64,000 nt of DNA from Cyanobacteria bacterium P01_F01_bin.150 (GCA_039189765.1 JBCCYL010000002.1:96001-160000), one strand, 5' to 3'. Shown: positions 13,731 through 64,000, counted from the stretch's first letter. A program made the numbers and translations. Notes: generated by a model not told the origin, from the sequence alone.

Positions 13731-14198
13731 CTATATTATCCGAGCAATAGTAGGTGCTCGCAGCCTTAATTGTGGCAGTTGTTCAACCGTTCCGTTAGAG
13801 GATTGACTATTGTCTTCAACCGTTTCATTCCCAGCATGAACTTGACTGGCCAGAGATTCTACATTCTCTGGCCCAGCCTGCTGTATGGCTTGCAAAAGAT
13901 ACTGAACTGATTCTATAAAAGGAGTTACCTCAATCTCGAAATAGTCAGGTTGATATGCTCCTAAGCGCTGAAGACCTTCGCCCATTAGAATGACACAGCC
14001 TTGCCAGTTGTGGTTGCGGAGATGGTAGAGTCCTACGGCAATTTGGATTAATCCTTGATAAAAGTTGCGATCGACTTCTATTGCCTCTAGCCAAATAGCT
14101 TCCCATGTATCATGGCAGGCATAAAAATCTTTGGTGTTGAATTCTTCGACCCCTTGCCAAAATTCTGGGGGAATATCGGAACGCCTATCTGTGGTCAT
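13731..14198 (-). CDS. DUF309 domain protein
   Basis: FYACHDTWEAIW...YQGLIQIAVGLYH. Confidence 0.85.
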   Translation of the reverse strand: MTTDRRSDIPPEFWQGVEEFNTKDFYACHDTWEAIWLEAIEVDRNFYQGLIQIAVGLYHLRNHNWQGCVILMGEGLQRLGAYQPDYFEIEVTPFIESVQYLLQAIQQAGPENVESLASQVHAGNETVEDNSQSSNGTVEQLPQLRLRAPTIARII

Positions 14199-37418: not shown

Positions 37419-38294
37419 ATGGTAACCGTCCCCCTTCAGCAATCTTCAGCGGCATCTCCCGATCTTTCACAGGCGGATCTTTCACAGGCGGATCTTTCCG
37501 AGGCGGATCGCTCACAGATAGATTCGTCTGTCGCCAATGAAACCATATCTCAGCATGTGTCTTGGCCAATGAGGAATACGGATGGCGTCAGGATTGAATG
37601 GAAGAAGCTGCCCGCCGACTTTGAATTACCGGATGATCCTGTGGACAATCTTGCTCAGCCTGCTCTGGCTGCGGCCCTAACTGATAGCCTAAATCAGGCG
37701 GGGCTAGTATCTGATACTGGTTTTACGATGACTAACTATGGGCTGTGTGCCGATCTGAACGGCCATACTGTGGTTAAGGCTCCTGATTGGGCCTATGTGG
37801 ATCGGATTACTGTCCCCCGTGAAGATATTGTGCGAAGCTATACCCCTTACCTGGAGGGGGACACTCCATGCATCGTTATTGAGTTTCTATCCGAAACTCC
37901 AGGAGGAGAATATTCCGTTAAGCCGACCCATCCCCCTGGAAAATGGTATTTCTATGAAGCGGTTCTGAAGGTGCCCTATTATGTTCTTTTTGAGCCGACC
38001 TCTGGAGATTTAGAGGTTTATAGTTTTCAGGAAGGGATCGTCCATAAAAATGTGATCATGGAAAATAACGGTCGCTACTGGATTGAATCCATGCAGCTTT
38101 TTTTAGGGGTATGGCAGGGCGATCGCCAAGATCGTAGCGGATATTGGCTGCGCTGGTGGGATAAGGATGATAATCTCTTGCTCTGGGGGTTTGAAAAAGC
38201 CGAACAGGAAGCCCAACGAGCCGAACAGGCAGAAAATGATGTTGAGAAGCTGCGAGAACAATTACGAGCGGCTGGCATTGAACCTGATGTTTAA
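37419..38294 (+). CDS. Uma2 family endonuclease-fold protein
   Basis: KAPDWAYV, VIEFLSET, WLRWWD, C-terminal AEQEAQRAEQ coil. Confidence 0.88.
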   Translation: MVTVPLQQSSAASPDLSQADLSQADLSEADRSQIDSSVANETISQHVSWPMRNTDGVRIEWKKLPADFELPDDPVDNLAQPALAAALTDSLNQAGLVSDTGFTMTNYGLCADLNGHTVVKAPDWAYVDRITVPREDIVRSYTPYLEGDTPCIVIEFLSETPGGEYSVKPTHPPGKWYFYEAVLKVPYYVLFEPTSGDLEVYSFQEGIVHKNVIMENNGRYWIESMQLFLGVWQGDRQDRSGYWLRWWDKDDNLLLWGFEKAEQEAQRAEQAENDVEKLREQLRAAGIEPDV

Positions 38295-45367: not shown

Positions 45368-48037
45368 TCAAGAAACATCATTGAAATATTCACAGTTGAG
45401 AGATTGATAGATTTCTAGGAATTTAGGCTCATTGCGAATGTTATCTAAATCGCGATCAACAGTAAGAGCATCTTTAATTTTTTGGGCACCCAGCGCAACA
45501 GCTTTTTCAAGGCTTTGCAATGCTAAATCCACTTCTCCCTTCAATGCATAACAGCATGCCTTATTGTAATAGGGAAGAGGATTTCTGGGTTCAATTGATA
45601 TGGCCTTTTCATAACTTTCAATCGCTAGCTCATAGTCTTTAAGAGCTACTAGAGTTAGACCTTGATTATTCCAAATATCGCAGCATTCAGAATTAGTTAG
45701 TATAGCCTTATTATAGCTATCAAGAGCTTCTTCATATTGCATTAGGTGGCGTAAGCTGTTACCTCGGTTAAACCAAGATTTCCAGGCCTTATCATTCTCC
45801 TCATCATTTATAATCGCCTTCTCAAAAGAGATTAGCGCATCCTCATGACGCTGTAGTTTGGCTGAAATATAACCTCGATTAAACCAAGCAAGCTTGTTAT
45901 CTGGATCAATTTCAATAGCTTGATTTAGATAATTTATTGCTACTTCATGATCACCTAAAAATTCAGAAATAACACAGCCTAAATTATTTAAAGATAGGAT
46001 ATCGTCAGCTTTAATCTGAAGAGCCTTACTATAAAATTGAATTGATTGCTCCATTAACTCAGACTTGTAACAAAATGTCCCTATGCCATCTCTGTATAGA
46101 CGATTCACAAGACTTTTATCAACTTTTTTTTCCAACCTTGACATTGTTTCGTCTAGTTGACGAATGGCTGAATCTTTCCGAGAAGAAGTACAGAACCGTA
46201 GTTCAATAAAGAGTAGTAGTACGCCTATTAAGTCTTCCACTTGATCAAACTTAGAAAATAAGTGTTTAGACAGTAGCTCATAAATCTCATACTTTTTAAG
46301 TGCGACCGATCTAAAACTCAAATAATCCTTAATATCAAATACATTGTCTTTCAAAATGGCAGAAACAGGTTCATAAATAAGCTTAATTTCATCTAAAAAA
46401 AGATGTATTTTCTGAGGTAATAAATAGGCGTTAGTTCTATTCTCAACATATATTGAATTAATGACATTTAAAAATAGTTCATCTTGTTTAAAGTAGCAAG
46501 TTCCAATCCAAAACTCTATATAGATTTTATATACTTCTTTGGTATGACAAAAGACTAAATAGTAAAGACTCTCTGCTATTAATTTGCACCAATCATCATC
46601 CTCAAAACTATCGGAGATATCTTCAGATTTAGTATCAATTATTTTTTCAGCCTGACTCTTGAGGTAAGCTGATATTGCCATGTGAATATCACGAAAATCC
46701 TTTTGGCTCTCTTGCCATAGAGAACGCCTAAGTATATCCCTTGCGACGTCATTTAAACGATATGATTTCTCAGAAAATTCAACAAAGCTTTGATCCTTAA
46801 TCCAATTAAAGGAATCTAATTCTTTTTCATCTTTTATGAATAATGGAATTTCAAAATACCTTGTTATCTCTACTAACATCTCACGATTAAACCATCGACA
46901 ACAAGCTGCAATCTGAATTATTTTTTTCTGAGACTTAGAGTAATGAGAATCTAATATTAAGCTGGCAACGATTTCATTCCCGATTGAGAAATCGATTTTT
47001 CGTCCTAGAATCAGCTCATCTTTTACCCACTTTAAATAGTAAGGTAATCCTTTCGTTGTTTGAAAAATGGTATTAATTTTAGATTTATCCAAGGTATTAA
47101 CTTGGCTAAGATAGTGCTGAGTCTGTTCTAAATTGAATCTGCTGAGACGAGTTGAATAGATCATCTCACTATCCTGCTGCAATTTCCTCCACCCTTTCTT
47201 CTCCATGAGTGACAATCTACTAGAAATAATGACAAAAATATTATGTTTTAGTCTTGTAAGAAAAGAGTTTCTGAGCAAGAAATACAAAGCCCAAATATCA
47301 AAATCAGTACCGGCTTTTTCATAAGTATCTAGAGCCAAAACTATTGGGTAATTTTTTGATTTTTTCACAAGCACTTGAATAAATGCATGTGTTAGCTCTG
47401 ACAGTGGACTTTGCAATAGCTTCTGCAATTGCTTATTCTTCTTAGTGGCTTGGTGTCTTTGAAGAAACTGCTGAATCCTATCTTTTTCTGAAAGGAGCAT
47501 TGACGAGCTATCTACAACAAGGTCAGAAACGAGAGTGTGTATCTCATTTGGTAAACTTCCAGGAATAAAAAAACTACTTGCAAAGCTAGAAGTTTGCTTG
47601 ACTAACTGCTTGACTATCTTAATCTGATCTGAGTCAACAGAAGATTTTCCCTCAACTGGCTGCATTTCTAACTGAGTAAGTACCGATTCATACTGATTAA
47701 TTTTCAGACAAAAAGAATCAGGCTTAGGAAATAATTCTTTGTGTAGGATATTTGGCTTAGGAGCATACATCCCTAACTCTTCGTATAATTTTTTCATCAG
47801 CTGGATAGGTGTCTCTATCCCTATTTTGGAATCAAAGGAGGTATACAGTACACATGCTTGAGAAGAAAAGGATTTTTGTATGCGTTTCAAAAGATATGTT
47901 TTACCAACTCCACCGACTCCATATACATGAAAAACAAATGGCCTATCTTGTCCATTTTGTTTTTCTAGGCTTGCCGAAAAAGTATCCAGAAATAGCTGAT
48001 CTTGATTTCTAAAAACATATAGGGGCTTAGCATTCAT
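45368..48037 (-). CDS. P-loop NTPase (STAND-like) with C-terminal TPR repeats
   Basis: GVGGVGKT, LALDTYE, GLPYYL (GxP), TPRs WFNRG...YNKACCYAL; visibly AT-rich. Confidence 0.82.
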   Translation of the reverse strand: MNAKPLYVFRNQDQLFLDTFSASLEKQNGQDRPFVFHVYGVGGVGKTYLLKRIQKSFSSQACVLYTSFDSKIGIETPIQLMKKLYEELGMYAPKPNILHKELFPKPDSFCLKINQYESVLTQLEMQPVEGKSSVDSDQIKIVKQLVKQTSSFASSFFIPGSLPNEIHTLVSDLVVDSSSMLLSEKDRIQQFLQRHQATKKNKQLQKLLQSPLSELTHAFIQVLVKKSKNYPIVLALDTYEKAGTDFDIWALYFLLRNSFLTRLKHNIFVIISSRLSLMEKKGWRKLQQDSEMIYSTRLSRFNLEQTQHYLSQVNTLDKSKINTIFQTTKGLPYYLKWVKDELILGRKIDFSIGNEIVASLILDSHYSKSQKKIIQIAACCRWFNREMLVEITRYFEIPLFIKDEKELDSFNWIKDQSFVEFSEKSYRLNDVARDILRRSLWQESQKDFRDIHMAISAYLKSQAEKIIDTKSEDISDSFEDDDWCKLIAESLYYLVFCHTKEVYKIYIEFWIGTCYFKQDELFLNVINSIYVENRTNAYLLPQKIHLFLDEIKLIYEPVSAILKDNVFDIKDYLSFRSVALKKYEIYELLSKHLFSKFDQVEDLIGVLLLFIELRFCTSSRKDSAIRQLDETMSRLEKKVDKSLVNRLYRDGIGTFCYKSELMEQSIQFYSKALQIKADDILSLNNLGCVISEFLGDHEVAINYLNQAIEIDPDNKLAWFNRGYISAKLQRHEDALISFEKAIINDEENDKAWKSWFNRGNSLRHLMQYEEALDSYNKAILTNSECCDIWNNQGLTLVALKDYELAIESYEKAISIEPRNPLPYYNKACCYALKGEVDLALQSLEKAVALGAQKIKDALTVDRDLDNIRNEPKFLEIYQSLNCEYFNDVS

Positions 48038-54713: not shown

Positions 54714-56681
54714 ATGTCAAACTTTCGTGCAGTGATTCTTACCGCACTTCCTGTTGAATTTGAGTCTGTGCGAGAGTTCTTGCCTAAGAGTGAGGAAGTT
54801 TGTCATCCAGCCGGAAACATTTATGAGCGTGGGGAGTTCCAAGGGAATCACTGCCTCTGGGATGTGGGCATTGCAGAAGTGGGAATGGGAGATGCGGGAG
54901 CTGCTTTTGAGACGGAACGAGCGATCTCTTTTTTTAATCCCGACGTTATTTTATTTGTGGGGGTTGCAGGTGGAATCAAAGATGTTGAGATTGGAGATGT
55001 CGTTGCGTCCACCAAAGTTTATAACTATGAGTCTGGAAAGGCGAAAGAAACGTTTAATCCCCGACCAGAGACAGGATTAAGCTCCTATGCACTGATTCAG
55101 CGGGCTATGGCAGAGCGCCGAAGTCGTGGTCAGGAGTGGCTGAGCCGTCTTAAATCTAAGCCCCAAAAACTGCCTAAGGTGAAGGTCGGGCCGATCGCTG
55201 CTGGAGAGAAAGTGATTGCCTCTAAGAAATCAGAGGTATATAAGCTTGTGGAAAAGCAATATGGTGATGCTCTGGCGGTTGATATGGAGGGGTATGGCTT
55301 TCTAAAGGCCGCTCATGCCAATGAACATCGAGCCGTGGCAATGGTGGTGCGGGGTATTTCTGATCTAATTGAGGGCAAGAACGATGAGGAGAATCAGGAA
55401 CCAGAAGACATTCGCCAAGAAAAAGCATCTCGACATGCCAGTGCATTTGCATTCCAGCTACTGGCAAATTTCACCCCGCAAGGAAGGTTAATTGAGGCTC
55501 CCTCAGAGGCTCAGCAGGTATCACCTCAACCTTGGGATTCGCTCTTCAACAGTTTTGATAATGTTGATCCTGAAAGGCTTCAAACGTTTGCATCTTGCTT
55601 GGAAGAGGTATTGCCGCCTTTACAACGAGATCTTTTCCCGGAATTGAGTCAGAAGACGACGATGAATCTTAAAACACTTCTTTCTGTAGTGGAGCGTCTT
55701 AATAGTGTAGAGCGTCTTGATAGTGTGGGTCTGCTTGTGAAATGGGTAGAGCTTATTGTGCGTGAGCCAGAAGAGCGATCTGATGATGAATTATCGGGAC
55801 TTGGTTTATCTGATTTACAAGCATGGTGCGACAAACATCGTCCTTCTGTTAGGGAGCCAGAGCCAGAGCCGGAGCCAGAGAGATTGGAGTATCTGCTGAT
55901 TACCCTGGAACCCAGGGATGATGACGATACAGTGTTTCTGACCGCAGAAATTCAGGCTACGAATGGCAAGTTACTCAGTAATAATCTTTTGCCTCCGGGT
56001 CAAAAATGTTCTATCGATGACCCATCTGAATCGTTATCTGAAGCCATTAATAAAGCGGGGAAAGTTAAAGCCGTTGAAATTTTCTTATCATGGCGGCATT
56101 TTCGCAAACCAATTCATGAGTGGAAAATCAATCGAGGTTTGGACGATATACATCTGAACGTGTTCAGAAATGTATTGCTGCGATCGCTTGATAGGTGTCT
56201 AGAAAAGAAATACAAGTATTTGGTAGCTGAATGGACCGAAAGGCTCCGTAGTCAGTGGGAACAACTACCCTCCTGTGAGAATCGGGTCTTAGAAGATTAT
56301 TGCCATAATGTGACGGCGTTGGATTTGGATTTTTTAAGGAGTACCTTGGTCCCAGAAGAATCTAAATATCTGATTTTGCACTTCTTGGATGAACTGCCAG
56401 AAGAACTTGACGAGTTAAGGAAGCTAGTTAGTATCTTAATGGAGTCAGGCATTCCTATCTGCTTATGGCCGCGTGATGAGCCGATTCAATCTGAGAGCGT
56501 TCCAGAATCCCTTGCAACACTTCTTTGCGATATGAACGTGCTGCGCCAGCCAAGCCGCTTGGCGGCTAGTATTCGAAAACTCGATACTCCTTTGTCAAAT
56601 TTAGGTTTACTATGCGAGTGTCCTTACCGATTACCTGGTTTGGTGGATTGGAAAAGTGGCCGTTTGCGCCAGCCTGCTTAG
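54714..56681 (+). CDS. N-terminal PNP/MTA-SAH nucleosidase domain fused to a VMAP-like C-terminal region
   Basis: ILTALPVE, FVGVAGG, GDVV, DMEG, VRGISD; C-terminal YLLITLEP...VEIFL...GIPICLWPR...LLCECPYRLP; directly upstream of MoxR. Confidence 0.8.
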   Translation: MSNFRAVILTALPVEFESVREFLPKSEEVCHPAGNIYERGEFQGNHCLWDVGIAEVGMGDAGAAFETERAISFFNPDVILFVGVAGGIKDVEIGDVVASTKVYNYESGKAKETFNPRPETGLSSYALIQRAMAERRSRGQEWLSRLKSKPQKLPKVKVGPIAAGEKVIASKKSEVYKLVEKQYGDALAVDMEGYGFLKAAHANEHRAVAMVVRGISDLIEGKNDEENQEPEDIRQEKASRHASAFAFQLLANFTPQGRLIEAPSEAQQVSPQPWDSLFNSFDNVDPERLQTFASCLEEVLPPLQRDLFPELSQKTTMNLKTLLSVVERLNSVERLDSVGLLVKWVELIVREPEERSDDELSGLGLSDLQAWCDKHRPSVREPEPEPEPERLEYLLITLEPRDDDDTVFLTAEIQATNGKLLSNNLLPPGQKCSIDDPSESLSEAINKAGKVKAVEIFLSWRHFRKPIHEWKINRGLDDIHLNVFRNVLLRSLDRCLEKKYKYLVAEWTERLRSQWEQLPSCENRVLEDYCHNVTALDLDFLRSTLVPEESKYLILHFLDELPEELDELRKLVSILMESGIPICLWPRDEPIQSESVPESLATLLCDMNVLRQPSRLAASIRKLDTPLSNLGLLCECPYRLPGLVDWKSGRLRQPA

Positions 56682-56703
56682 CCCTATATGTTTTGTAAGT
56701 TCT

Positions 56704-57918
56704 ATGTCTAACTGGAAATTTTTTACTGGTCAACTAAAGCAAGATAATACGCCTCGGCAATCTCCATTGGAGCCAATTGGGGAGCGACCGGCTTGGCGGC
56801 AGTTTATGGCTAAGGACGAGTTTGAAAAAACGTGGGCAAAGGCAAGTAAGGCTCGATGGAAGGCATTGCGGAGTGAGGGGCGACTGGACACGCGATCACG
56901 AGAAAAGGGGCAGAGCTTTCGGATTCGGCAAATGGATAATGGCCAGTCTGAGATTCAGACGGCGGTGAATTCGGCATTGGCTTTGCGGCGTCCACTATTG
57001 ATTACGGGCAATCCAGGGTCGGGGAAGACATCGTTGGCCTATGCGATCGCCTACGAACTCAATCTAGGCCCTGTCTTGCTATGGCCCATTACTACCCGCA
57101 CCAGGTTATCGGATGCGCTCTATCAGTATGATGCGATCGCCCGTTTGCAGGATACTCAGTTTGATAAGGCGGAACTGGAGTTACAACTGCTATTGGCGAA
57201 GGCGGACGATAAAACGCCAGATCGCACCAAAATCGAAGCGCTTAAAAAAGGCCGCAACCTGGGCGATTATATTCAGCTTGGGCCCGTGGGAACTGCGTTT
57301 CTGCCGTCCCATTTACCCCGTGTGTTGTTAATTGACGAGATTGACAAGAGCGAGTTAAACCTGCCCAATGATCTGCTGAATTTGTTTGAGGAAGGCAGCT
57401 ACAACATTCCAGAATTGGCCCGACAAAAGAGTAGTGCAAAGGTGTCGGTGCGGACGGCAGATGATGAGCTATCGGCGGATATTGTTAAGGGCAAGGTGAC
57501 CTGTTACGAATTTCCATTGGTTATTTTGACCAGTAATGGGGAACGGGACTTTCCTCCAGCGTTTCTGCGTCGCTGTTTGCGGATTAATATGCCTGACCCC
57601 ACGGAAAGTGATGTGCTGGAGCGTATTGTTGGGGCACACTTTGAATGCGCTGAACATCTGGAGGGAGAGCGTTCCTGGCCTGAATTAAAAGAGGATATTC
57701 GACCGCTGATTGAGGCGTTTGCTAAGGACCTTGGACGCAAGAAATCGTCTTTAGCGACGGATCAACTGCTGAATTTAATCTATATGGTGCGTCAGTCCCA
57801 AATTAGTGTCACTGAGGCCATGGGTGATGAGAGCCAGCACAAGGAAAAAACAGCGGAATTAGACACTCTCAAAGCCATCTTGCTGCGTCGTCTCACAGGG
57901 GAAGCGGGTCGCAAATGA
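56704..57918 (+). CDS. MoxR family AAA+ ATPase
   Basis: LRRPLLITGNPGSGKT, LLIDEIDK, TSNGERDFPPAFLRRC. Confidence 0.92.
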   Translation: MSNWKFFTGQLKQDNTPRQSPLEPIGERPAWRQFMAKDEFEKTWAKASKARWKALRSEGRLDTRSREKGQSFRIRQMDNGQSEIQTAVNSALALRRPLLITGNPGSGKTSLAYAIAYELNLGPVLLWPITTRTRLSDALYQYDAIARLQDTQFDKAELELQLLLAKADDKTPDRTKIEALKKGRNLGDYIQLGPVGTAFLPSHLPRVLLIDEIDKSELNLPNDLLNLFEEGSYNIPELARQKSSAKVSVRTADDELSADIVKGKVTCYEFPLVILTSNGERDFPPAFLRRCLRINMPDPTESDVLERIVGAHFECAEHLEGERSWPELKEDIRPLIEAFAKDLGRKKSSLATDQLLNLIYMVRQSQISVTEAMGDESQHKEKTAELDTLKAILLRRLTGEAGRK

Positions 57919-60854
57919 GCACAGAGCAGTTTGTCGCAGCATTGAGTGAGTGTGACCTCAATCCCACAGAGATCGCGGATATTCTCTGGCTAGCGCTGCG
58001 TCAACTGGATTCTGCTGAGCAATTTGGTGAGGATAAGACTAATGATGGCCAGGAGGATGGGGCTAGAGGCGATGATGGCCAGGAGGATGGGGCTGGAGAC
58101 GATGATGGCCAGGAGGATGAGGCTGGAGACGATGATGGCCAGGAGGATGAGGCTGGAGACGATGATAGCCAGGAGGATGGGGCTGAAGACGATGATGGCC
58201 AAAACGCTGTAGAAGATGGCGCGGCTGGTGGTGATCTTCCCCCTGGCGATGACGATGAAGAAGAGAGCGGAGAAGAAACCGGGGACGAGGATAAGGATGA
58301 CGGCTCTGACCAACAGTCGTCCTTTGATATTGCTGCACAGGATGCTTCGGGGGTCTTGCCAGAAAAAGCGGTCCCCATTTCGGTTCCTGATGCAGGTTTT
58401 CTAGAGGAAACGTTACCGCTGGTGCGGGCCTTGCGACCCATCCTAAAGCAAATTGCCTCTGAGACCGTTAGCTATGTGGATGAGGCGGCAACGGTGGATC
58501 GGATTGCGGAGACAAATATCTGGTCGCCGGTGCTGCAACCGGATTATGAACCGTGGTTTGATGTAGCCTTTGTAATCGATAGCAGTGCTTCCATGCATTT
58601 ATGGGAGCGGTTGATTCAGGATATTCAGCGGTTGTTGCGCTGCTATGGGTCATTTCGAGACTTTCGAGTTTGGCAGTTGAAGGTGACAGAAGGCCAGGTG
58701 GGTATTTGTGCGGTGCCGGATCAGGTTATGCGCCATCCAAGGGCGTTGCTTGCGCCGGATGGTCGTCGGCTGACGTTGGTGTTTAGTGACTGTACGGCGG
58801 AATATTGGTGGGATGGAACGCTTCAGCCGATGCTGGCCCTGTGGGGAGAGTCCATGCCGACATCAATTTGGCAGGTGCTGCCCGATTGGATGTGGAAGCG
58901 TACGGCGTTGGGGGTTGGGGAGTATGTGGCGATTCGAAATCGGATTCCTGGGGCGACAAATGGAGAGCTAAACCCGATCTTTTTATCATTACGTCCATCG
59001 ATTTTATCGCCAGCGGAGCCGTCTCAGGCGGCAGATAGTTTGGTTGGGGCTTCACCAGCTAAGCCGATTTGTGTGCCTGTGATTACTACGGAGTCCGAGT
59101 CCCTGAGTGCTTGGAGTCGAATGGTGGCAGGGGATCGGCGGTCGTCAACGCCGGGGTTTGTGTTGCCGGAGAGGGGCTGGGAGAAGGAGCGGCCAACGCC
59201 ATCAGATGATTTACAAGGGGATGCCGATCAGCAAGAGGTTGCAGACCAACAGTTGGAGCAATTTCGCTTACGAGCGACCCCTGAGGCCCGTCGATTGGCG
59301 GCGTTATTATCGGCTGCGCCGGTGATTACCTTGCCGATTATGCGGTTGATTCGAGCGTCCATGTTGTCTGGCACGTCTCCATTGCCGGTGGCTGAGGTCT
59401 TTTTAGGCGGGTTGTTAAAGCGGACATCCACCCCAGGGCAGACGCCAGATAAGCCGATAGATACTGAGCTGGTCCAGTATGATTTGCCGATTGAAACGCG
59501 GAATCGCCTGTTGGATGTGTTGCCAAAGGTGGAGGCGATTGAGGTGATCGAGGCGGTGTCCCAACATATTTCTGAGCAGTTGGGGCTGACTCTGATGGAT
59601 TTTCGGGCATTGCTGTTATCTCTTGACTTAAAACAGGAGGCGGATCAGTATGACCTAAAAGCGTTTGCCCGTGTGACGGCCCAGATTTTACGAAAGTTGG
59701 GGAAGGAGTATGCGGCCTTAGCGGACCAATTTGAGGTTCCTCTGGAGCCTGATATCCCTCGGACACAGAAATGGTTGGATCTGCCCCTGGAGGAGTTTGA
59801 GCACGAATCGGCTAGGCTTGTGGCTTTGCCTAGTGAGCCGAGGGCGATCGCCCTTACCATAGTTACGTTAAGCATTCAGCCAGACTATGCTGCGGGGCTG
59901 GAAGAGGTGGAAGACCGTCAGGCTGAAGTTGTGACGCTGGTGGTTGACGAAGCAGAGCAACCATCAGTATTTGATCAGTTAGAACCGTTTCCAATTCAGA
60001 TTGCAACGGTTGAACGTCAAGGGTCTGAGTGGGTGGTTAACTATACCGAATCAGAGGCCGATCGCTATATTGAGACCTTGCCAGGGGGAATTTCTTTGGA
60101 ATTAGCAAGGATTCCATCTGGGGGCTTTATGATGGGGGCACCAGAGGATGAACCAGAGCGCCATGGGCGGGAAACTCAGCATCGAGTGACGATCGCTTAT
60201 GACTTTTTGATGGGGCGCTATCCCGTGACTCAGGCTCAGTGGCGGGTGGTTGCATCCTCCCTGCCTCAGATTGTTCGGAATCTAAAACCAGCCCCATCTA
60301 AATTTAAAGAGGAGAAGCGTCCGGTTGAACGAGTCAGTTGGCATGAGGCGATAGAGTTTTGTAATCGCCTTAATCGCTATTTTGAGGGGCGCTCTATCCC
60401 GGAGGGGTACGAATATCGCTTACCGAGCGAAATTGAATGGGAATATGCCTGTCGTGCAGAAACCACTACTCCCTTTTATTTTGGGCCAATGATTACGACC
60501 GAGGTAGCAAATTATAGCGGTAGCTCCTATGACGATGGACCTACTGGAAAAAGGCGAGGAGAAACCACCCCAGTTACCGAGTTTAACCATGCCAATCAAT
60601 TTGGCCTATCGGATATGCATGGCAATGTTTGGGAATGGTGCTTAGATGAGTGGTGGCATCAGAATTACAGGGGTGCCACCCTCGATGGCAGTACGTGGCT
60701 AGAGAACACCCCACAAAGTAATAATAGGCATGTTAGGCGTGGCGGGTCTTGGATCTCTCGTCCGAGGTACTGTCGGTCTGCCTATCGTCTCCACGACCAC
60801 TCCGACCTTCGCTCCGACTCTCTTGGTTTTCGGGTTGTTCTCGCCCCTCAATGA
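57915..60854 (+). CDS. vWA (SAV_2336-like) protein with C-terminal FGE-sulfatase/CLec-fold domain
   Basis: EIADILWLA, VDEAATV, MIDAS DSSAS, VFSDC; C-terminal YRLPSEIEWEYACRA, DMHGNVWEW, RGGSW...GFRVV; ATGA overlap with MoxR stop. Confidence 0.88.
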   Translation: MSTEQFVAALSECDLNPTEIADILWLALRQLDSAEQFGEDKTNDGQEDGARGDDGQEDGAGDDDGQEDEAGDDDGQEDEAGDDDSQEDGAEDDDGQNAVEDGAAGGDLPPGDDDEEESGEETGDEDKDDGSDQQSSFDIAAQDASGVLPEKAVPISVPDAGFLEETLPLVRALRPILKQIASETVSYVDEAATVDRIAETNIWSPVLQPDYEPWFDVAFVIDSSASMHLWERLIQDIQRLLRCYGSFRDFRVWQLKVTEGQVGICAVPDQVMRHPRALLAPDGRRLTLVFSDCTAEYWWDGTLQPMLALWGESMPTSIWQVLPDWMWKRTALGVGEYVAIRNRIPGATNGELNPIFLSLRPSILSPAEPSQAADSLVGASPAKPICVPVITTESESLSAWSRMVAGDRRSSTPGFVLPERGWEKERPTPSDDLQGDADQQEVADQQLEQFRLRATPEARRLAALLSAAPVITLPIMRLIRASMLSGTSPLPVAEVFLGGLLKRTSTPGQTPDKPIDTELVQYDLPIETRNRLLDVLPKVEAIEVIEAVSQHISEQLGLTLMDFRALLLSLDLKQEADQYDLKAFARVTAQILRKLGKEYAALADQFEVPLEPDIPRTQKWLDLPLEEFEHESARLVALPSEPRAIALTIVTLSIQPDYAAGLEEVEDRQAEVVTLVVDEAEQPSVFDQLEPFPIQIATVERQGSEWVVNYTESEADRYIETLPGGISLELARIPSGGFMMGAPEDEPERHGRETQHRVTIAYDFLMGRYPVTQAQWRVVASSLPQIVRNLKPAPSKFKEEKRPVERVSWHEAIEFCNRLNRYFEGRSIPEGYEYRLPSEIEWEYACRAETTTPFYFGPMITTEVANYSGSSYDDGPTGKRRGETTPVTEFNHANQFGLSDMHGNVWEWCLDEWWHQNYRGATLDGSTWLENTPQSNNRHVRRGGSWISRPRYCRSAYRLHDHSDLRSDSLGFRVVLAPQ
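58041..58201 (+). repeat. 30-bp coding tandem repeat (DDGQEDGAGD), about 5.3 copies
   Basis: GATGATGGCCAGGAGGATG(G/A)GGCTGGAGAC units. Confidence 0.9.
60738..60854 (+). other. Putative DGR variable region VR-A
   Basis: 117-bp scaffold shared with the other FGE 3' ends; differences mainly at codon positions 1-2 of NNC/NNT codons. Confidence 0.75.
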
Positions 60855-60925
60855 CTCCTTTTGTAATTTGCCTTATTTCATTTTATTTTCTACATATAAA
60901 AATAATAAAATCTCATTGATTAGAA

Positions 60926-61762
60926 ATGGCGACATCCTCCAGTACGGCTCCTAGGAAAATTCGGGAAGAACGTGAGACGACGACGTTTCGGTTTGGGCAA
61001 GAGCGGTTGAATGATGAGGTTCTGCTGAATTTGGTGCGGATTCTGGCTGGGGGTTTCATTATGGGGTCGCCAGAGGGAGAAGAGGGGCGTTCTGATGCTG
61101 AAGGTCCTCAGCGCTTGGTGTCAGTGTCGGAGTTCTGGATGGGGCAGTATCCCGTGACTCAGCAAGAATGGCGGATTGTGGCTGGATATACCAAGGTTGA
61201 ACGAGATATGGAGCTTGACCCATCTCATTTTAAGGGAGGCCGTCGTCCGGTCGAGAGAGTATCCTGGGATGATGCGGTGGAGTTTTGTCAACGCCTCTCG
61301 CAGCATACAGGCCGTAACTACCGCTTACCTTCGGAAGCTGAATGGGAATATGCCTGTCGGGCGGAAACTAAGACCCCCTTTCATTTGGGTCTAACCCTTT
61401 CAGCCAAATACTCTAACTACGACGCCAGGGAAGTGTATGGTCTTGGGACACAGGGAGAATATCGAAGGGGAACTGTGGATGTAGATCACTTTCAGGTGAC
61501 CAATAACTTTGGATTGGTCGGGATGCATGGCAATGTGTGGGAATGGTGCCAGGACCACTGGCATGAAAGCTATAAGGGTGCCCCCCTCAATGGTAGTGCA
61601 TGGATGGAGAACACCTCACATAGTAAGAATAGGGACTGCGTATTTCGTGGCGGGGCTTGGTTAACTCGTCCGAGAGACTGTCGGTCTGCCTTTCGTGGCC
61701 ACAATCTTCCCGCCTATCGCCGCCGCAATCTCGGTTTTCGGGTAGTTCTCGCCCCCCAATGA
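60926..61762 (+). CDS. Stand-alone FGE-sulfatase/CLec-fold protein (putative DGR target; VR 61646-61762)
   Basis: FIMGS, YPVTQ, YRLPSEAEWEYACRA, MHGNVWEW, RGGAW...GFRVVLAPQ. Confidence 0.9.
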   Translation: MATSSSTAPRKIREERETTTFRFGQERLNDEVLLNLVRILAGGFIMGSPEGEEGRSDAEGPQRLVSVSEFWMGQYPVTQQEWRIVAGYTKVERDMELDPSHFKGGRRPVERVSWDDAVEFCQRLSQHTGRNYRLPSEAEWEYACRAETKTPFHLGLTLSAKYSNYDAREVYGLGTQGEYRRGTVDVDHFQVTNNFGLVGMHGNVWEWCQDHWHESYKGAPLNGSAWMENTSHSKNRDCVFRGGAWLTRPRDCRSAFRGHNLPAYRRRNLGFRVVLAPQ

Positions 61763-61799
61763 CTCCTTTGCTTTTTCTTTTTTGTCTTTTTGCCTTTGC

Positions 61800-61858
61800 C
61801 CCGGTGCCCAGACTCTGGCTCCCGGAGCATTCCCAGCCAGAGTCTGGGAATCAGGGGG
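61800..61858. repeat. REP-like palindromic repeat, short copy
   Basis: GGTGCCCAGACTCTGGCT ... CATTCCCAGCCAGAGTCTGGGAAT. Confidence 0.65.
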
Positions 61859-61878
61859 ATCAGAGGGGCGGCTGAGGA

Positions 61879-62007
61879 TCAGGCATCAAGCAAGTCAAAC
61901 AGAATCTGCACCAGTTTAGGAGCGCTAAAAATTGGAATCCATTTGGTGGTTGTGCAGGTGACAAAGTGGGGCTGGTTGCCCACAGTCCGATATTGAGAAC
62001 GATCCAT
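61879..62007 (-). pseudogene. Truncated REP-associated tyrosine transposase (RAYT) N-terminal fragment
   Basis: MDRSQYRTVGNQPHFVTCTTTKWIPIFSAPKLVQILFDLL resembles RAYT N-termini (HF.TCT...W.P.F); stops before the HUH motif; flanked by REP-like repeats. Confidence 0.65.
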
Positions 62008-62099
62008 ACTGAAGATTAAATAATGTGGTCTTAACGTTCCCAATTGAATTGGAAGATTGCATACTGAAAGGCAGATATGTTCGCATTCCTCCAGTCCAC

Positions 62100-62210
62100 C
62101 CTGGTGCCCAGACTCCGGCTGGGTGCAATGGACGAGACTCTGGCTCGTCTGCCTTTGTTTTTGGAGCCGGAGTCTCCAAGAGGATTCCCAGCTAGAGTCT
62201 GGGAATGAGG
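62100..62210. repeat. REP-like palindromic repeat, long copy
   Basis: GGTGCCCAGACTCCGGCTGGG...GAGACTCTGGCTC...GAGCCGGAGTCTC...TTCCCAGCTAGAGTCTGGGAAT nested inverted repeats. Confidence 0.65.
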
Positions 62211-62248
62211 TGTGTAAGAGTTGTAAGTTGATTGGAGTATTCCCTTCA

Positions 62249-63100
62249 ATGGTTGTTTTCATCCCCAAAAAACGAACGCACACCGACCAGCGCTTTTTTG
62301 AAGCCTTGGGGAATAACCAACGATTGGAAATGGTGTTAATTCAGGAGGGAACCTTTACGATGGGATCTCCTGATAATGAGGAAAAACGCAGAGATGCGGA
62401 AGGTCCACAGCGTGAGGTAACGGTTTCAACTTTTCTGATGGGCCGTTATCCCGTGACCCAATCCCAGTGGCGGCAAGTGTCTAAATTTGACCCCGTTGAC
62501 CCGGATATTGAATTTCCCCCTAATCCATCTCGCTTCAAGAATAAGCAAGATAGCGATCATCGTCCGGTGGAGCAGGTGAATTGGCATCAGGCCAATGAGT
62601 TCTGTGCTCGCCTCAATCAGTTTCTTGAATCCCGCTCCAGCACTCCATTGAATCGAGCCTATCGCTTACCGTCCGAAGCAGAGTGGGAATATGCTTGTCG
62701 AGCTGGAACTACCACTCCTTTTTATTGCGGCGAAACCATCTCCACAGACGTCGCCAATTATGATGGCAACTACACCTACGGTAGAGGGCCAAAAGGCCGA
62801 TATCGAGAAGAAACTACCCCTGTCGGCTCTTTGGAGTCTGGCAATTCCTGGGGACCGTGTGATATGCATGGCAATGTTTGGGAATGGTGCCAAGACCACT
62901 GGCATGAAAATTACAAGTATGCCCCCCTCGATGGCAGTGCATGGCTGGAGAACACCCCACAAAGTGAGAATAGGCGGGTGAACCGTGGCGGGTCTTGGCT
63001 CGCTCGTCCATGGTTCTGTCGGTCTGCCTGTCGCAACCGCTACCACCCCGACGGTCGCGACGCCTATCTTGGTTTTCGTGTTGTTCTCGCCCCCCAATGA
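62249..63100 (+). CDS. Stand-alone FGE-sulfatase/CLec-fold protein (putative DGR target; VR 62984-63100)
   Basis: Likely start MVVFIPKKR after GGAG; FTMGS, YRLPSEAEWEYACRA, RGGSW...GFRVVLAPQ. Confidence 0.9.
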   Translation: MVVFIPKKRTHTDQRFFEALGNNQRLEMVLIQEGTFTMGSPDNEEKRRDAEGPQREVTVSTFLMGRYPVTQSQWRQVSKFDPVDPDIEFPPNPSRFKNKQDSDHRPVEQVNWHQANEFCARLNQFLESRSSTPLNRAYRLPSEAEWEYACRAGTTTPFYCGETISTDVANYDGNYTYGRGPKGRYREETTPVGSLESGNSWGPCDMHGNVWEWCQDHWHENYKYAPLDGSAWLENTPQSENRRVNRGGSWLARPWFCRSACRNRYHPDGRDAYLGFRVVLAPQ

Positions 63101-63206
63101 TTCCCCTTTGCCATCTGCTTTTTTGCCTTTCGCTTTCTTCAAGAAATATTCAGTTAAACCTTTCGATAAATTAACTAGAAATTATTCAGAGTAAAATCCT
63201 TCGCCG

Positions 63207-64000
63207 ATGGTTTCCTCCCCTCCCACCGAATCCAATCCCAAATGCCATATTGACCGAGAACCGATTGAGGTGATATCGGTTCAGCAGCCGTTAAATAACG
63301 ACGTGAGTTTGGTCTTGGTGCAGATTCCAGAGGGGGATTTTATGATGGGGTCCCCAGAAGATGAACTCGAACGAAGCGATGCAGAAGGGCCGCAGCACCC
63401 GGTGCATATTCAGGAATTTTGGATGGGGCAATATCCCGTAACCCAGGCAGAATGGCGCATTGTGGCCAGCTATCGCAAAGTAAACCATGACTTAGCGGCT
63501 GCCCCCTCCGAATTCAAAGGAGATCGATTGCCCGTCGAGAACGTGTCTTGGGATGATGCGGTGGAGTTTTGTCAGCGCCTCTCCCAAAACACCGGATTGA
63601 ACTATCGCCTCCCCACCGAAGCCGAATGGGAATACGCCTGTCGAGCTAAAACCACAACCCCCTTCCATTTTGGCAAAACCATCACCACTGAGTATGCCAA
63701 CTATCGAGGAACCGATGATGAGTATGGAAATTCTGGTTCCTATGGGGGTGGCCCCAAAGGGGGCTATCGAGAGGAAACAACTTCTGTAGGCTCCTTTGAG
63801 GTCACTAACCACTTTGGCCTTGCCGATATGCACGGCAATGTGTGGGAGTGGTGCCAGGACCACTGGCATGACAACTATAAGGATGCCCCCTCCGATGGCA
63901 GTGCTTGGCTGGGCAACACCCCACAAAGTATTAATATGCGTGTAATTCGTGGCGGGTCTTGGCTCGATCGTCCATGGTACTGTCGGTCTGCCTATCGTGG
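63207..64000 (+). CDS. Stand-alone FGE-sulfatase/CLec-fold protein, truncated by window end (VR begins 63948)
   Basis: Manual translation MVSSPPTESNPK...FMMGSPEDE...YRLPTEAEWEYACRA...DMHGNVWEW...RGGSWLDRPWYCRSAYR; not in the ORF track because no stop lies in the window. Confidence 0.9.
   Translation, partial: MVSSPPTESNPKCHIDREPIEVISVQQPLNNDVSLVLVQIPEGDFMMGSPEDELERSDAEGPQHPVHIQEFWMGQYPVTQAEWRIVASYRKVNHDLAAAPSEFKGDRLPVENVSWDDAVEFCQRLSQNTGLNYRLPTEAEWEYACRAKTTTPFHFGKTITTEYANYRGTDDEYGNSGSYGGGPKGGYREETTSVGSFEVTNHFGLADMHGNVWEWCQDHWHDNYKDAPSDGSAWLGNTPQSINMRVIRGGSWLDRPWYCRSAYR

Follow-up and report, generated by a model that had tools for sequence, protein, structure and literature searches.

Probable retroelement-written variable regions in a tandem array of FGE/C-type-lectin genes at a cyanobacterial VMAP-type locus

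How can old tandem paralogues keep their 3' ends nearly alike at synonymous sites and still differ in a chosen set of codons? This question is raised by the final 9.3 kb of a 64,000-nt stretch from Cyanobacteria bacterium P01_F01_bin.150 (GCA_039189765.1 JBCCYL010000002.1:96001-160000; the whole stretch is referred to here as the window), a single gene cluster co-oriented on the + strand that ends in four genes of the formylglycine-generating enzyme (FGE)/C-type lectin (CLec) type. A first-pass annotation, drawn from the sequence alone, had proposed that the four carry the hypermutation footprint of a diversity-generating retroelement (DGR), with no reverse transcriptase (RT) or template repeat (TR) in the window. 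Judging from sequence comparisons, the four 3' ends were in all likelihood written by a DGR, and the explanation that we hold with high confidence for the locus as a whole is that DGR-written variable regions (VRs) sit on the sensor arm of a VMAP-MoxR-vWA system. All four open reading frames (ORFs) match PF03781 (FGE-sulfatase; E 3e-45 to 2.5e-54), and both the tandem arrangement and the coordinates first annotated stood up, with exact motif matches where they had been placed. The genes and their VR-like ends are as follows.

57915..60854, + strand: gene 1, 979 aa, with an acidic repeat, a SAV_2336 N-terminal (vWA-type) region and a C-terminal FGE/CLec sensor (NF041121, PF03781)
60926..61762, + strand: gene 2, stand-alone FGE/CLec, 278 aa (PF03781, 8.4e-49)
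62249..63100, + strand: gene 3, stand-alone FGE/CLec, 283 aa from the ATG at 62249 (PF03781, 2.5e-54, scanned as the longer 62057-63100 ORF)
63207..64000, + strand: gene 4, FGE/CLec, cut by the window end (PF03781, 2.3e-49 over 264 aa)
60738..60854, + strand: VR-like region 1 (VR1), the last 39 codons of gene 1 including the stop
61646..61762, + strand: VR-like region 2 (VR2), the most drifted copy (synonymous divergence, dS, of 0.22 to VR1 and 0.41 to VR3)
62984..63100, + strand: VR-like region 3 (VR3; dS 0.11 to VR1)
63948..64000, + strand: VR-like region 4 (VR4), first 17 codons only (nhmmer 2.6e-11)

No gaps are needed to align the three complete 117-nt ends with one another and with the truncated fourth. 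The motif CGTGGCGGNNCTTGG has four exact matches in the window (60738, 61646, 62984 and 63948) and a fifth, at 38133, with two mismatches, compared with a mean of 0.83 in shuffles; the 3' motif GGTTTTCGNGTNGTTCTCGCCCC occurs three times (60825, 61733 and 63071) and never in shuffles. The paralogues have a third-position identity of 0.29-0.57 in alignment columns 1-225, which rises to 0.82-0.87 in columns 241-300. Gene bodies have a dS of 1.59-1.75 and a ratio of nonsynonymous to synonymous divergence (dN/dS) of 0.23-0.27, and in the 36-codon core of the VRs these values are 0.11-0.41 and 0.76-2.05. Because synonymous divergence in the gene bodies is saturated, the paralogues must be old. The real signal at this locus is the loss of synonymous divergence in the 3' ends together with an adenine pattern.

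That pattern is sharp. At invariant sites, adenine is found at 1 of 77 positions in the core, versus 63 of 258 in the gene body (p=2.6e-7) and 14 of 48 in the block directly upstream (p=4.2e-6). Codon choice in the core is skewed to match, with CGN at 21 of 23 Arg codons and TCN at all 9 Ser codons. The variable codons of the window form NNC/NNT sets, and the seven such sets quoted in the first-pass annotation were recovered exactly; they fall on hypervariable columns of the wider family. Of 119 homologues, 96 could be placed in the gap-free frame and the other 23, which could not, were left out. In those 96, K, E, Q, M and W account for 7 of 1056 residues (0.7%) at 11 high-entropy columns, versus 5180 of 23169 (22.4%) in the rest of those proteins. 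This scarcity is the spectrum that would be expected if only the first two bases of AAY codons were randomised. A discordance between the histories of the C-terminal block and the gene bodies, detailed below, also counts in favour of a DGR. Together, these indirect tests (adenine depletion, a dS collapse confined to the C-terminal block, dN/dS and AAY-type spectra) bear out the proposed DGR footprint.

In the model that these data support, an RT would copy a template repeat, misincorporating opposite template adenines, and the resulting cDNA would replace the last ~40 codons of each target (mutagenic retrohoming). AAY-type codons on the ligand-binding face of the FGE/C-type-lectin fold would be randomised by this process, and the adenine-free scaffold would stay intact. 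Gene 1 would represent a vWA-type module fused to one hypervariable sensor, genes 2-4 stand-alone sensor paralogues, an AAA+ ATPase the transducer and a nucleosidase-VMAP protein the effector. Following the literature, an invader-derived ligand bound by the vWA-fused sensor might be relayed via the AAA+ ATPase to the nucleosidase-VMAP effector, with the free sensors perhaps acting as alternative or decoy binders. An Avd-TR-RT module, located beyond the downstream end of the window or at another place in the genome, would still serve at least genes 1, 3 and 4. We lean, by a little, toward a DGR that is active at present.

A system of the same kind with its diversifier in place is found on the 43.6-kb plasmid p1FD4 of Microcystis aeruginosa FD4 (NZ_CP046974.1), where one strand encodes a TIR protein, a MoxR ATPase, a SAV_2336-FGE fusion, Avd, an IS5 insertion, an RT, a 131-nt TR and a stand-alone FGE gene. 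This template reads LRGGSWGNNPNNCRSAIRNNNNRRDNRNNNNGFRVVCVFGRTL (in short, LRGGSWGNNPNNCRSAIRNNNNRRDNRNNNNGFRVV...), and its adenines are distributed 16/15/3 over codon positions 1, 2 and 3. The two adjacent VRs differ from it at 17 and 14 of its 34 adenines versus 2 and 1 of the 97 other sites. A third, orphan VR differs from the TR at 15 of 95 non-adenine sites and by one codon indel; the cassette around it includes an Avd gene but lacks its own TR match, and downstream lies a gene for an IS630 transposase.

No comparable diversifier lies in the window, in agreement with the first-pass annotation. Pfam scans for RVT_1 and bAvd returned no match in the 43 window ORFs of at least 120 aa or in a second set of 20. 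Of this second set, 16 were drawn from 20 window ORFs of 85-119 aa, the four left aside lying out of frame within genes 1 and 3, and the remaining 4 were additional window ORFs; the Microcystis RT and Avd, included with this set as positive controls, were both recognised. A tblastn search of the window with the same two proteins gave nothing below E 0.38, and nhmmer --max and a position-specific scan for a template repeat in the window found only the four VRs. The locus is one in which the architecture, the C-terminal DNA homogenisation and the adenine signature are observed in a window that holds no template, RT or Avd. Kaur et al. place the template of VMAP systems in the neighbourhood or "elsewhere in the genome" (PMC7159879), and remote variable proteins have been reported for cyanobacteria by Vallota-Eastman et al. 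(PMC7517822).

Beyond the window, a scan of genome contigs for the adenine-free VR core gave 18 loci with one match each, none of them cyanobacterial, which we treated as chance; six ORFs with a Y/F-x-DD motif from those loci were considered as RT candidates and are not RTs. In a blastn search of plasmids with VR3 and its flank, 19 records matched only the upstream MHGNVWEWC-coding part (query 1-96) and never the VR. A region-restricted search for relatives of the last 62 aa of gene 3 yielded only 18 scored candidates, missing even genes 2 and 4, and so gives no paralogue count. Genes 1-3 and the VMAP protein are singleton clusters in an exact-sequence look-up, which contained no near-identical variants that could inform on VR polymorphism. 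The closest homologues come from Leptolyngbyaceae-like genomes, at no more than 68% identity. At least 120 cyanobacterial RTs were found with the Microcystis RT, 70-100% identical to the query among the matches listed. The two closest homologues of gene 3 (68% and 64%) sit on contigs of 6371 bp and 7516 bp, equal in size to the contigs of two DGR RT matches, and a third such pair measures 1712 bp; these equal contig sizes hint that the nearest relatives may lie in DGR cassettes.

Several features of the array weigh against a DGR origin, or against present activity, and we gather them here. The earlier statement that position 3 mostly stays constant is true only in part. Third positions are variable in 9 of 36 core codons versus 135 of 186 body codons (p=1.4e-7); variable core sites divide 12/10/9 over positions 1, 2 and 3, and the codon-position split taken alone (22:9 in the core versus 165:135 in the body) is not significant (p=0.13). 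To call this pattern the reverse of neutral drift, as the first-pass annotation did, was an overstatement. The 117-nt VR has 32 variable sites, 31 of them within the 36-codon core and one at position 3 of codon 301, and at 12 of the 32 no copy has an A. Four of these 12 are first positions of obviously AAY-type codons; the other eight (position 1 of codon 268; position 3 of codons 281, 284 and 285; position 1 of codon 286; and position 3 of codons 293, 296 and 301) look like genuine non-adenine changes. Gene 2 has four presumed non-adenine changes, or seven if its three private third-position adenines are included, and genes 1 and 3 have two each, which makes the idea of one template for all four genes doubtful. 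Similarly, core dS is 0.11-0.41 instead of about 0, and the window's VRs are more divergent than the two beside the intact Microcystis TR and less so than the orphan VR there. Because they carry about two presumed non-adenine changes each, compared with 1-2 of 97 beside that TR, genes 1 and 3 appear to fall within the range of VRs with a live template, with gene 2 apparently intermediate. Codons 270-274 divide the copies into 1+2 and 3+4, which suggests either two templates or an older history at the 5' edge of the rewritten segment; the 5' boundary of mutagenesis is described as imprecise by Wu et al. (PMC5758913), which is compatible with both.

The DNA on either side of the VRs also departs from a simple retrohoming pattern. 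Immediately upstream lies a block of about 70 nt:

60669..60737, + strand: homogenised block upstream of VR1, adenines kept (equivalents at 61574-61645, 62915-62983 and 63879-63947)

Its dS is 0.28-0.41 versus 1.6-1.75 in the gene bodies. Since A is present at 14 of its 48 invariant sites, the block was not adenine-mutagenised, and adenine mutagenesis alone leaves it unexplained. This points to gene conversion as a contributor; the candidates are gene conversion between the tandem copies and a longer template whose 5' part is rarely transferred. Unlike the window, p1FD4 has no homogenised block upstream of its TR-matching part. On the 3' side, where we checked for a GC-rich end resembling the initiation of mutagenic homing (IMH) site, the VRs have a conserved GTTCTCGCCCC end. 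BPP-1 has a GC-rich inverted repeat after its IMH, whereas none follows VR1 or VR3 in the window (z -0.71 and +0.37); such a repeat follows the VR in only 34% of DGRs according to PMC5758913. A hairpin after gene 2 was considered as a BPP-1-type structure and rejected, as it belongs to a separate palindromic element. This element occurs twice in the 486-nt spacer between genes 2 and 3 (61799-61856 and 62099-62210), 300 nt apart, with arms of 22-25 nt (CCCAGACTCTGGCT / AGCCAGAGTCTGGG); there are four arm matches in the window, all in the spacer, with z=-3.2 for the DNA fold. A search of plasmids with the intergenic element (61763-62248) gave no match, and the hairpin is possibly an insertion resembling a miniature inverted-repeat transposable element.

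We therefore asked how well the array could be accounted for by other histories. One is that a DGR once wrote these ends and that its RT and TR have since been lost or no longer serve the array, leaving a frozen repertoire of fixed germline sensors with slow drift and occasional gene conversion. We give this serious weight while placing it below even chances. The non-adenine differences and residual core dS are what it would leave behind, as are the clearly greater drift of gene 2 and the adenines retained in the homogenised upstream block, and arrays of like architecture without an RT do exist. At the loci on pREB2 and pREB7, two plasmids of Acaryochloris marina, the annotation shows no RT within 12-15 kb, and none turned up at either locus in a tblastn search with the Microcystis RT. 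pREB2 has five FGE-type matches, no separate template and, between two FGE genes, only a 33-aa fragment 64-67% identical to the Microcystis Avd (13954-14052 of the retrieved locus, - strand), which looks like the remnant of a decayed DGR cassette. Plasmid loci of Nostoc punctiforme (pNPUN01) and Nostoc sp. HK-01 likewise have no RT annotated within 10 kb, and tblastn with the Microcystis RT and Avd found nothing there. For Nostoc, a paralogue has been described that shows remnant TR-VR homology although no RT lies close by, and loss of the diversifier after variant selection was suggested (PMC7517822). Against such decay, the synonymous divergence of the scaffold is still 4-15x below the level in the gene bodies, only about two presumed non-A sites deviate in each of genes 1 and 3, Wu et al. 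report a DGR-cassette target with seven non-A-to-N differences (PMC5758913), and, according to Kaur et al., about 80% of the VMAP systems of cyanobacteria and gammaproteobacteria are DGR-associated (PMC7159879). Since live and decayed versions both occur in public genomes, the window alone cannot tell which of them it holds.

That no retroelement was ever involved, and that 3' gene conversion among tandem paralogues combined with point mutation and positive selection on ligand-binding codons produced the pattern, strikes us as very improbable. Homogenisation does extend from ~70 nt 5' of the adenine-free core to ~25-35 nt beyond the stop, dN/dS exceeds 1 in just two of three pairs, and the histories of block and body are discordant: genes 2 and 4 are the closest pair in the body (0.681) and the furthest apart in the C-terminal block (0.767), where genes 3 and 4 are closest (0.850). 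Selection does not, however, account for the avoidance of adenine at 76 of 77 invariant core sites or for the near absence of K, E, Q, M and W at the hypervariable columns of 96 homologues, and in Microcystis a bona fide TR serves as the template for the same scaffold. Even more remote is the prospect that these are ordinary catalytic enzymes of the formylglycine-generating or PvdO/EgtB type, with C-termini conserved for catalysis. The PF03781 matches and the solved structures closest to gene 2 (PvdO, 9e-32, and human FGE, 5e-19, followed by Treponema TvpA, 2.4e-15) would fit such enzymes, but all NCBIfam equivalog scores are far under their cut-offs (for PvdO, 125-152 bits versus 500), and gene 1 carries a fused vWA-type module and belongs to a MoxR/VMAP operon. 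In an alignment with human SUMF1, the position that we take to be the first catalytic cysteine coincides with a hypervariable codon (column 271, S/T/A/D).

Each complete VR is followed directly by a pyrimidine-rich tract.

60855..60894, + strand: pyrimidine-rich tract directly after the gene 1 stop, 78% C+T over 40 nt
61763..61802, + strand: pyrimidine-rich tract after gene 2, 90% C+T, 0 A
63101..63140, + strand: pyrimidine-rich tract after gene 3, 88% C+T

For 39 other ORFs of the window, C+T over the 40 nt after the stop averages 0.50, with a maximum of 0.68. Among VR-bearing FGE genes of the window, Acaryochloris, Nostoc and Microcystis, 14 of 16 have at least 70% C+T over this distance, and the remaining two have 0.40 and 0.45. 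The tract contains repeated CCYTTT-like words and begins immediately after the stop codon of the VR-bearing FGE genes, and in p1FD4 it is common to the VRs and absent from the TR. A literature search for diversity-generating retroelement paired with pyrimidine-rich found nothing, and the word "pyrimidine" does not occur in PMC5758913. We put forward, very tentatively, that the tract might be a target-site marker of this cyanobacterial DGR lineage, in the role of the BPP-1 IMH hairpin, letting one remote RT/TR rewrite sensor arrays in trans, this multi-receptor array included. If so, an array of at least four genes would feed a single MoxR/nucleosidase-VMAP effector as a multi-receptor immune sensor.

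The genes directly upstream of the array bear on what its products might do.

54714..56681, + strand: VMAP component, 655 aa, with a nucleoside-phosphorylase/nucleosidase-type head and a VMAP-C tail (PF01048, PF20028)
56656..57918, + strand: MoxR-like AAA+ ATPase, 420-aa form (PF07728, AAA_5)

In the VMAP protein, aa 6-243 match PF01048 (PNP_UDP_1, E 1.3e-26) and the C-terminus matches PF20028 (VMAP-C, 4e-14, 53.5 bits against a cut-off of 27). It also matches an NCBIfam MTA/SAH nucleosidase-like model at 6e-20, under the model cut-off, and, in PADLOC, "Effector PN-superfamily" (2.3e-13) and PDC-M60C (5.5e-23); VMAPs with heads of the nucleoside-phosphorylase superfamily are on record (PMC7159879). 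The ATPase matches AAA_5 at 7.2e-9 (36.2 bits against a cut-off of 22). No MoxR-specific NCBIfam model matched it, nor did any solved relative in a PDB sequence search; its positional equivalents in Microcystis and Acaryochloris are annotated "MoxR family ATPase" or "AAA family ATPase." Its start is uncertain, being either the GTG at 56656 or an ATG 48 nt downstream, and the 420-aa form is absent from the protein collection. (For gene 3, the 283-aa form is present in the collection and a 347-aa form starting at TTG is absent.) The ATPase gene stands between the VMAP and vWA-type genes, and its stop overlaps the start of gene 1. All three genes (54714-56681, 56656-57918 and 57915-60854) are on the + strand and abut or overlap, in the conserved order VMAP, MoxR, vWA.

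The remaining component would be the N-terminal part of gene 1. Its residues 84-557 match NCBIfam NF041121 (SAV_2336_NTERM, 6.7e-110), followed at residues 732-975 by the PF03781 domain (3e-45). No Pfam VWA model matched the N-terminal region, and a PDB sequence search with it returned no matches. A DxSxS motif at aa 222-226 is nonetheless conserved (D in 38, S in 31 and S in 40 of 43 sequences) in an alignment of gene 1 with 42 relatives, chosen at up to 800 aa from the best 150 of 3400 representatives (E<=1e-3); homologues of the region span 291 to 2475 aa. An AlphaFold2 model built from those 43 sequences has a pLDDT (predicted local distance difference test score) of 85.8. The top PDB match of the model, and the sole one at E<=0.001, comes from the NorQ/NorD complex, namely the VWA domain of NorD in its association with NorQ, a MoxR-type ATPase (E 2.9e-4); TM-scores of the fold matches are low (0.20-0.30), with phosphoribosyltransferase folds among the weaker ones. 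Because of this vWA evidence, the VMAP-C tail, the AAA_5 ATPase and the gene order, the locus fits the VMAP ternary systems of Kaur et al. (PMC7159879), with gene 1 as the predicted vWA-type component of a VMAP-MoxR-vWA ternary conflict system, a context missing from the first-pass annotation. In such systems, the vWA-CLec protein has been proposed to be an antigen sensor that signals via MoxR to the VMAP effector (Dore et al. 2024, PMC10907252).

Near its N-terminus, gene 1 contains a 30-nt tandem repeat (58042-58201, 5.3 copies, 94% match) that encodes an acidic, low-complexity stretch of the DDGQEDGAGD type. The window as a whole is cyanobacterial in character, with Ycf54 and PucC-type genes and 59 copies of the highly iterated palindrome HIP1 (GCGATCGC) versus 0.65 expected. 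The last 4.1 kb, which hold the FGE array (59852-64000), contain no HIP1 site versus 3.8 expected from the window density (P=0.022), and G+C is 0.49-0.54 in 1-kb windows over 57000-63999 versus 0.459 in the whole window. The history of the FGE array may thus differ from that of its surroundings. At 45368-48037 on the - strand, 7 kb upstream of the conflict locus, lies an 889-aa protein with sub-cut-off P-loop NTPase matches (AAA_16, ATPase_2, KAP_NTPase) in its N-terminal part and strong TPR repeats in its C-terminal part, which from these matches looks STAND-like (signal transduction ATPases with numerous domains). No RNA family of Rfam was found at gathering thresholds in the 64-kb window.

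Taken together, these data describe what would be a compact bacterial "antigen-sensor" array, in which one vWA-fused and at least three free hypervariable lectin-fold sensors are joined to a MoxR ATPase and a nucleosidase-type effector. If its DGR is intact, the organism would be suited to asking how one template serves several targets, what sets the 5' limit of rewriting, given the adenine-keeping upstream block, and what marks a target, for which the pyrimidine tract is one candidate. Published work already covers FGE sensors diversified by DGRs in the vWA-MoxR systems of cyanobacteria, with templates nearby or at other genomic sites (PMC7159879, PMC10907252, PMC7517822); as the phenomenon is known in filamentous cyanobacteria, the array adds to the catalogue and opens no new question.

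Among the closest known systems is p1FD4. Like the window, it has a MoxR ATPase followed by a SAV_2336-N-terminal/FGE fusion target, a stand-alone FGE target, a VR frame of the RGGSW..P..CRSA.R....GFRVV type and a pyrimidine-rich tract after each target stop. It differs in having Avd, RT (RVT_1) and the 131-nt TR on the spot, a TIR protein instead of a nucleosidase-VMAP as the effector, two targets near the RT instead of four or more in tandem, and a variable stretch one codon longer. On pREB2 of Acaryochloris marina MBIC11017 (NC_009927.1), we likewise found an MTA/SAH-nucleosidase-like protein, an AAA ATPase, a SAV_2336-FGE fusion and stand-alone FGE genes, which matches the window in gene order and in effector type, with homogenised VR scaffolds and pyrimidine tracts after the stops. 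Unlike the window, this array is plasmid-borne and its scaffold sequence differs (CGCGGCGGCTCCTGG...), the window VR having no match to it; DNA identity reached at most 85.6% even between Acaryochloris strains. The pREB7 locus combines a trypsin-like peptidase, MoxR, one long and two short FGE genes, and homogenised VR scaffolds.

The class defined by Kaur et al. in 2020 (PMC7159879) shares with the window a vWA domain fused to FGS/CLec, with extra domains always N-terminal. A tandem run of at least four FGS genes after the vWA fusion, as in the window, is not mentioned in the portions of PMC7159879 and PMC10907252 available to us. According to the latter, within RT clade 5E most cyanobacterial DGRs appear to diversify putative VMAP-system sensors, and DGR loci 4 and 5 of Thiohalocapsa PB-PSB1, which are diversified in trans, resemble the window as target loci without an RT or TR of their own inside VMAP-type systems; the VRs of these two loci agree with a remote TR at every non-adenine site and show polymorphism in natural populations (PMC10907252). 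In protein architecture, the window's genes also resemble Treponema denticola TvpA (PDB 2y3c) and Bordetella phage BPP-1 Mtd, both of which likewise have a C-terminal VR in a CLec/FGE-type fold. The former is a surface lipoprotein and the latter a protein of the phage tail, whereas the proteins of the window are predicted to be cytoplasmic conflict-system sensors.

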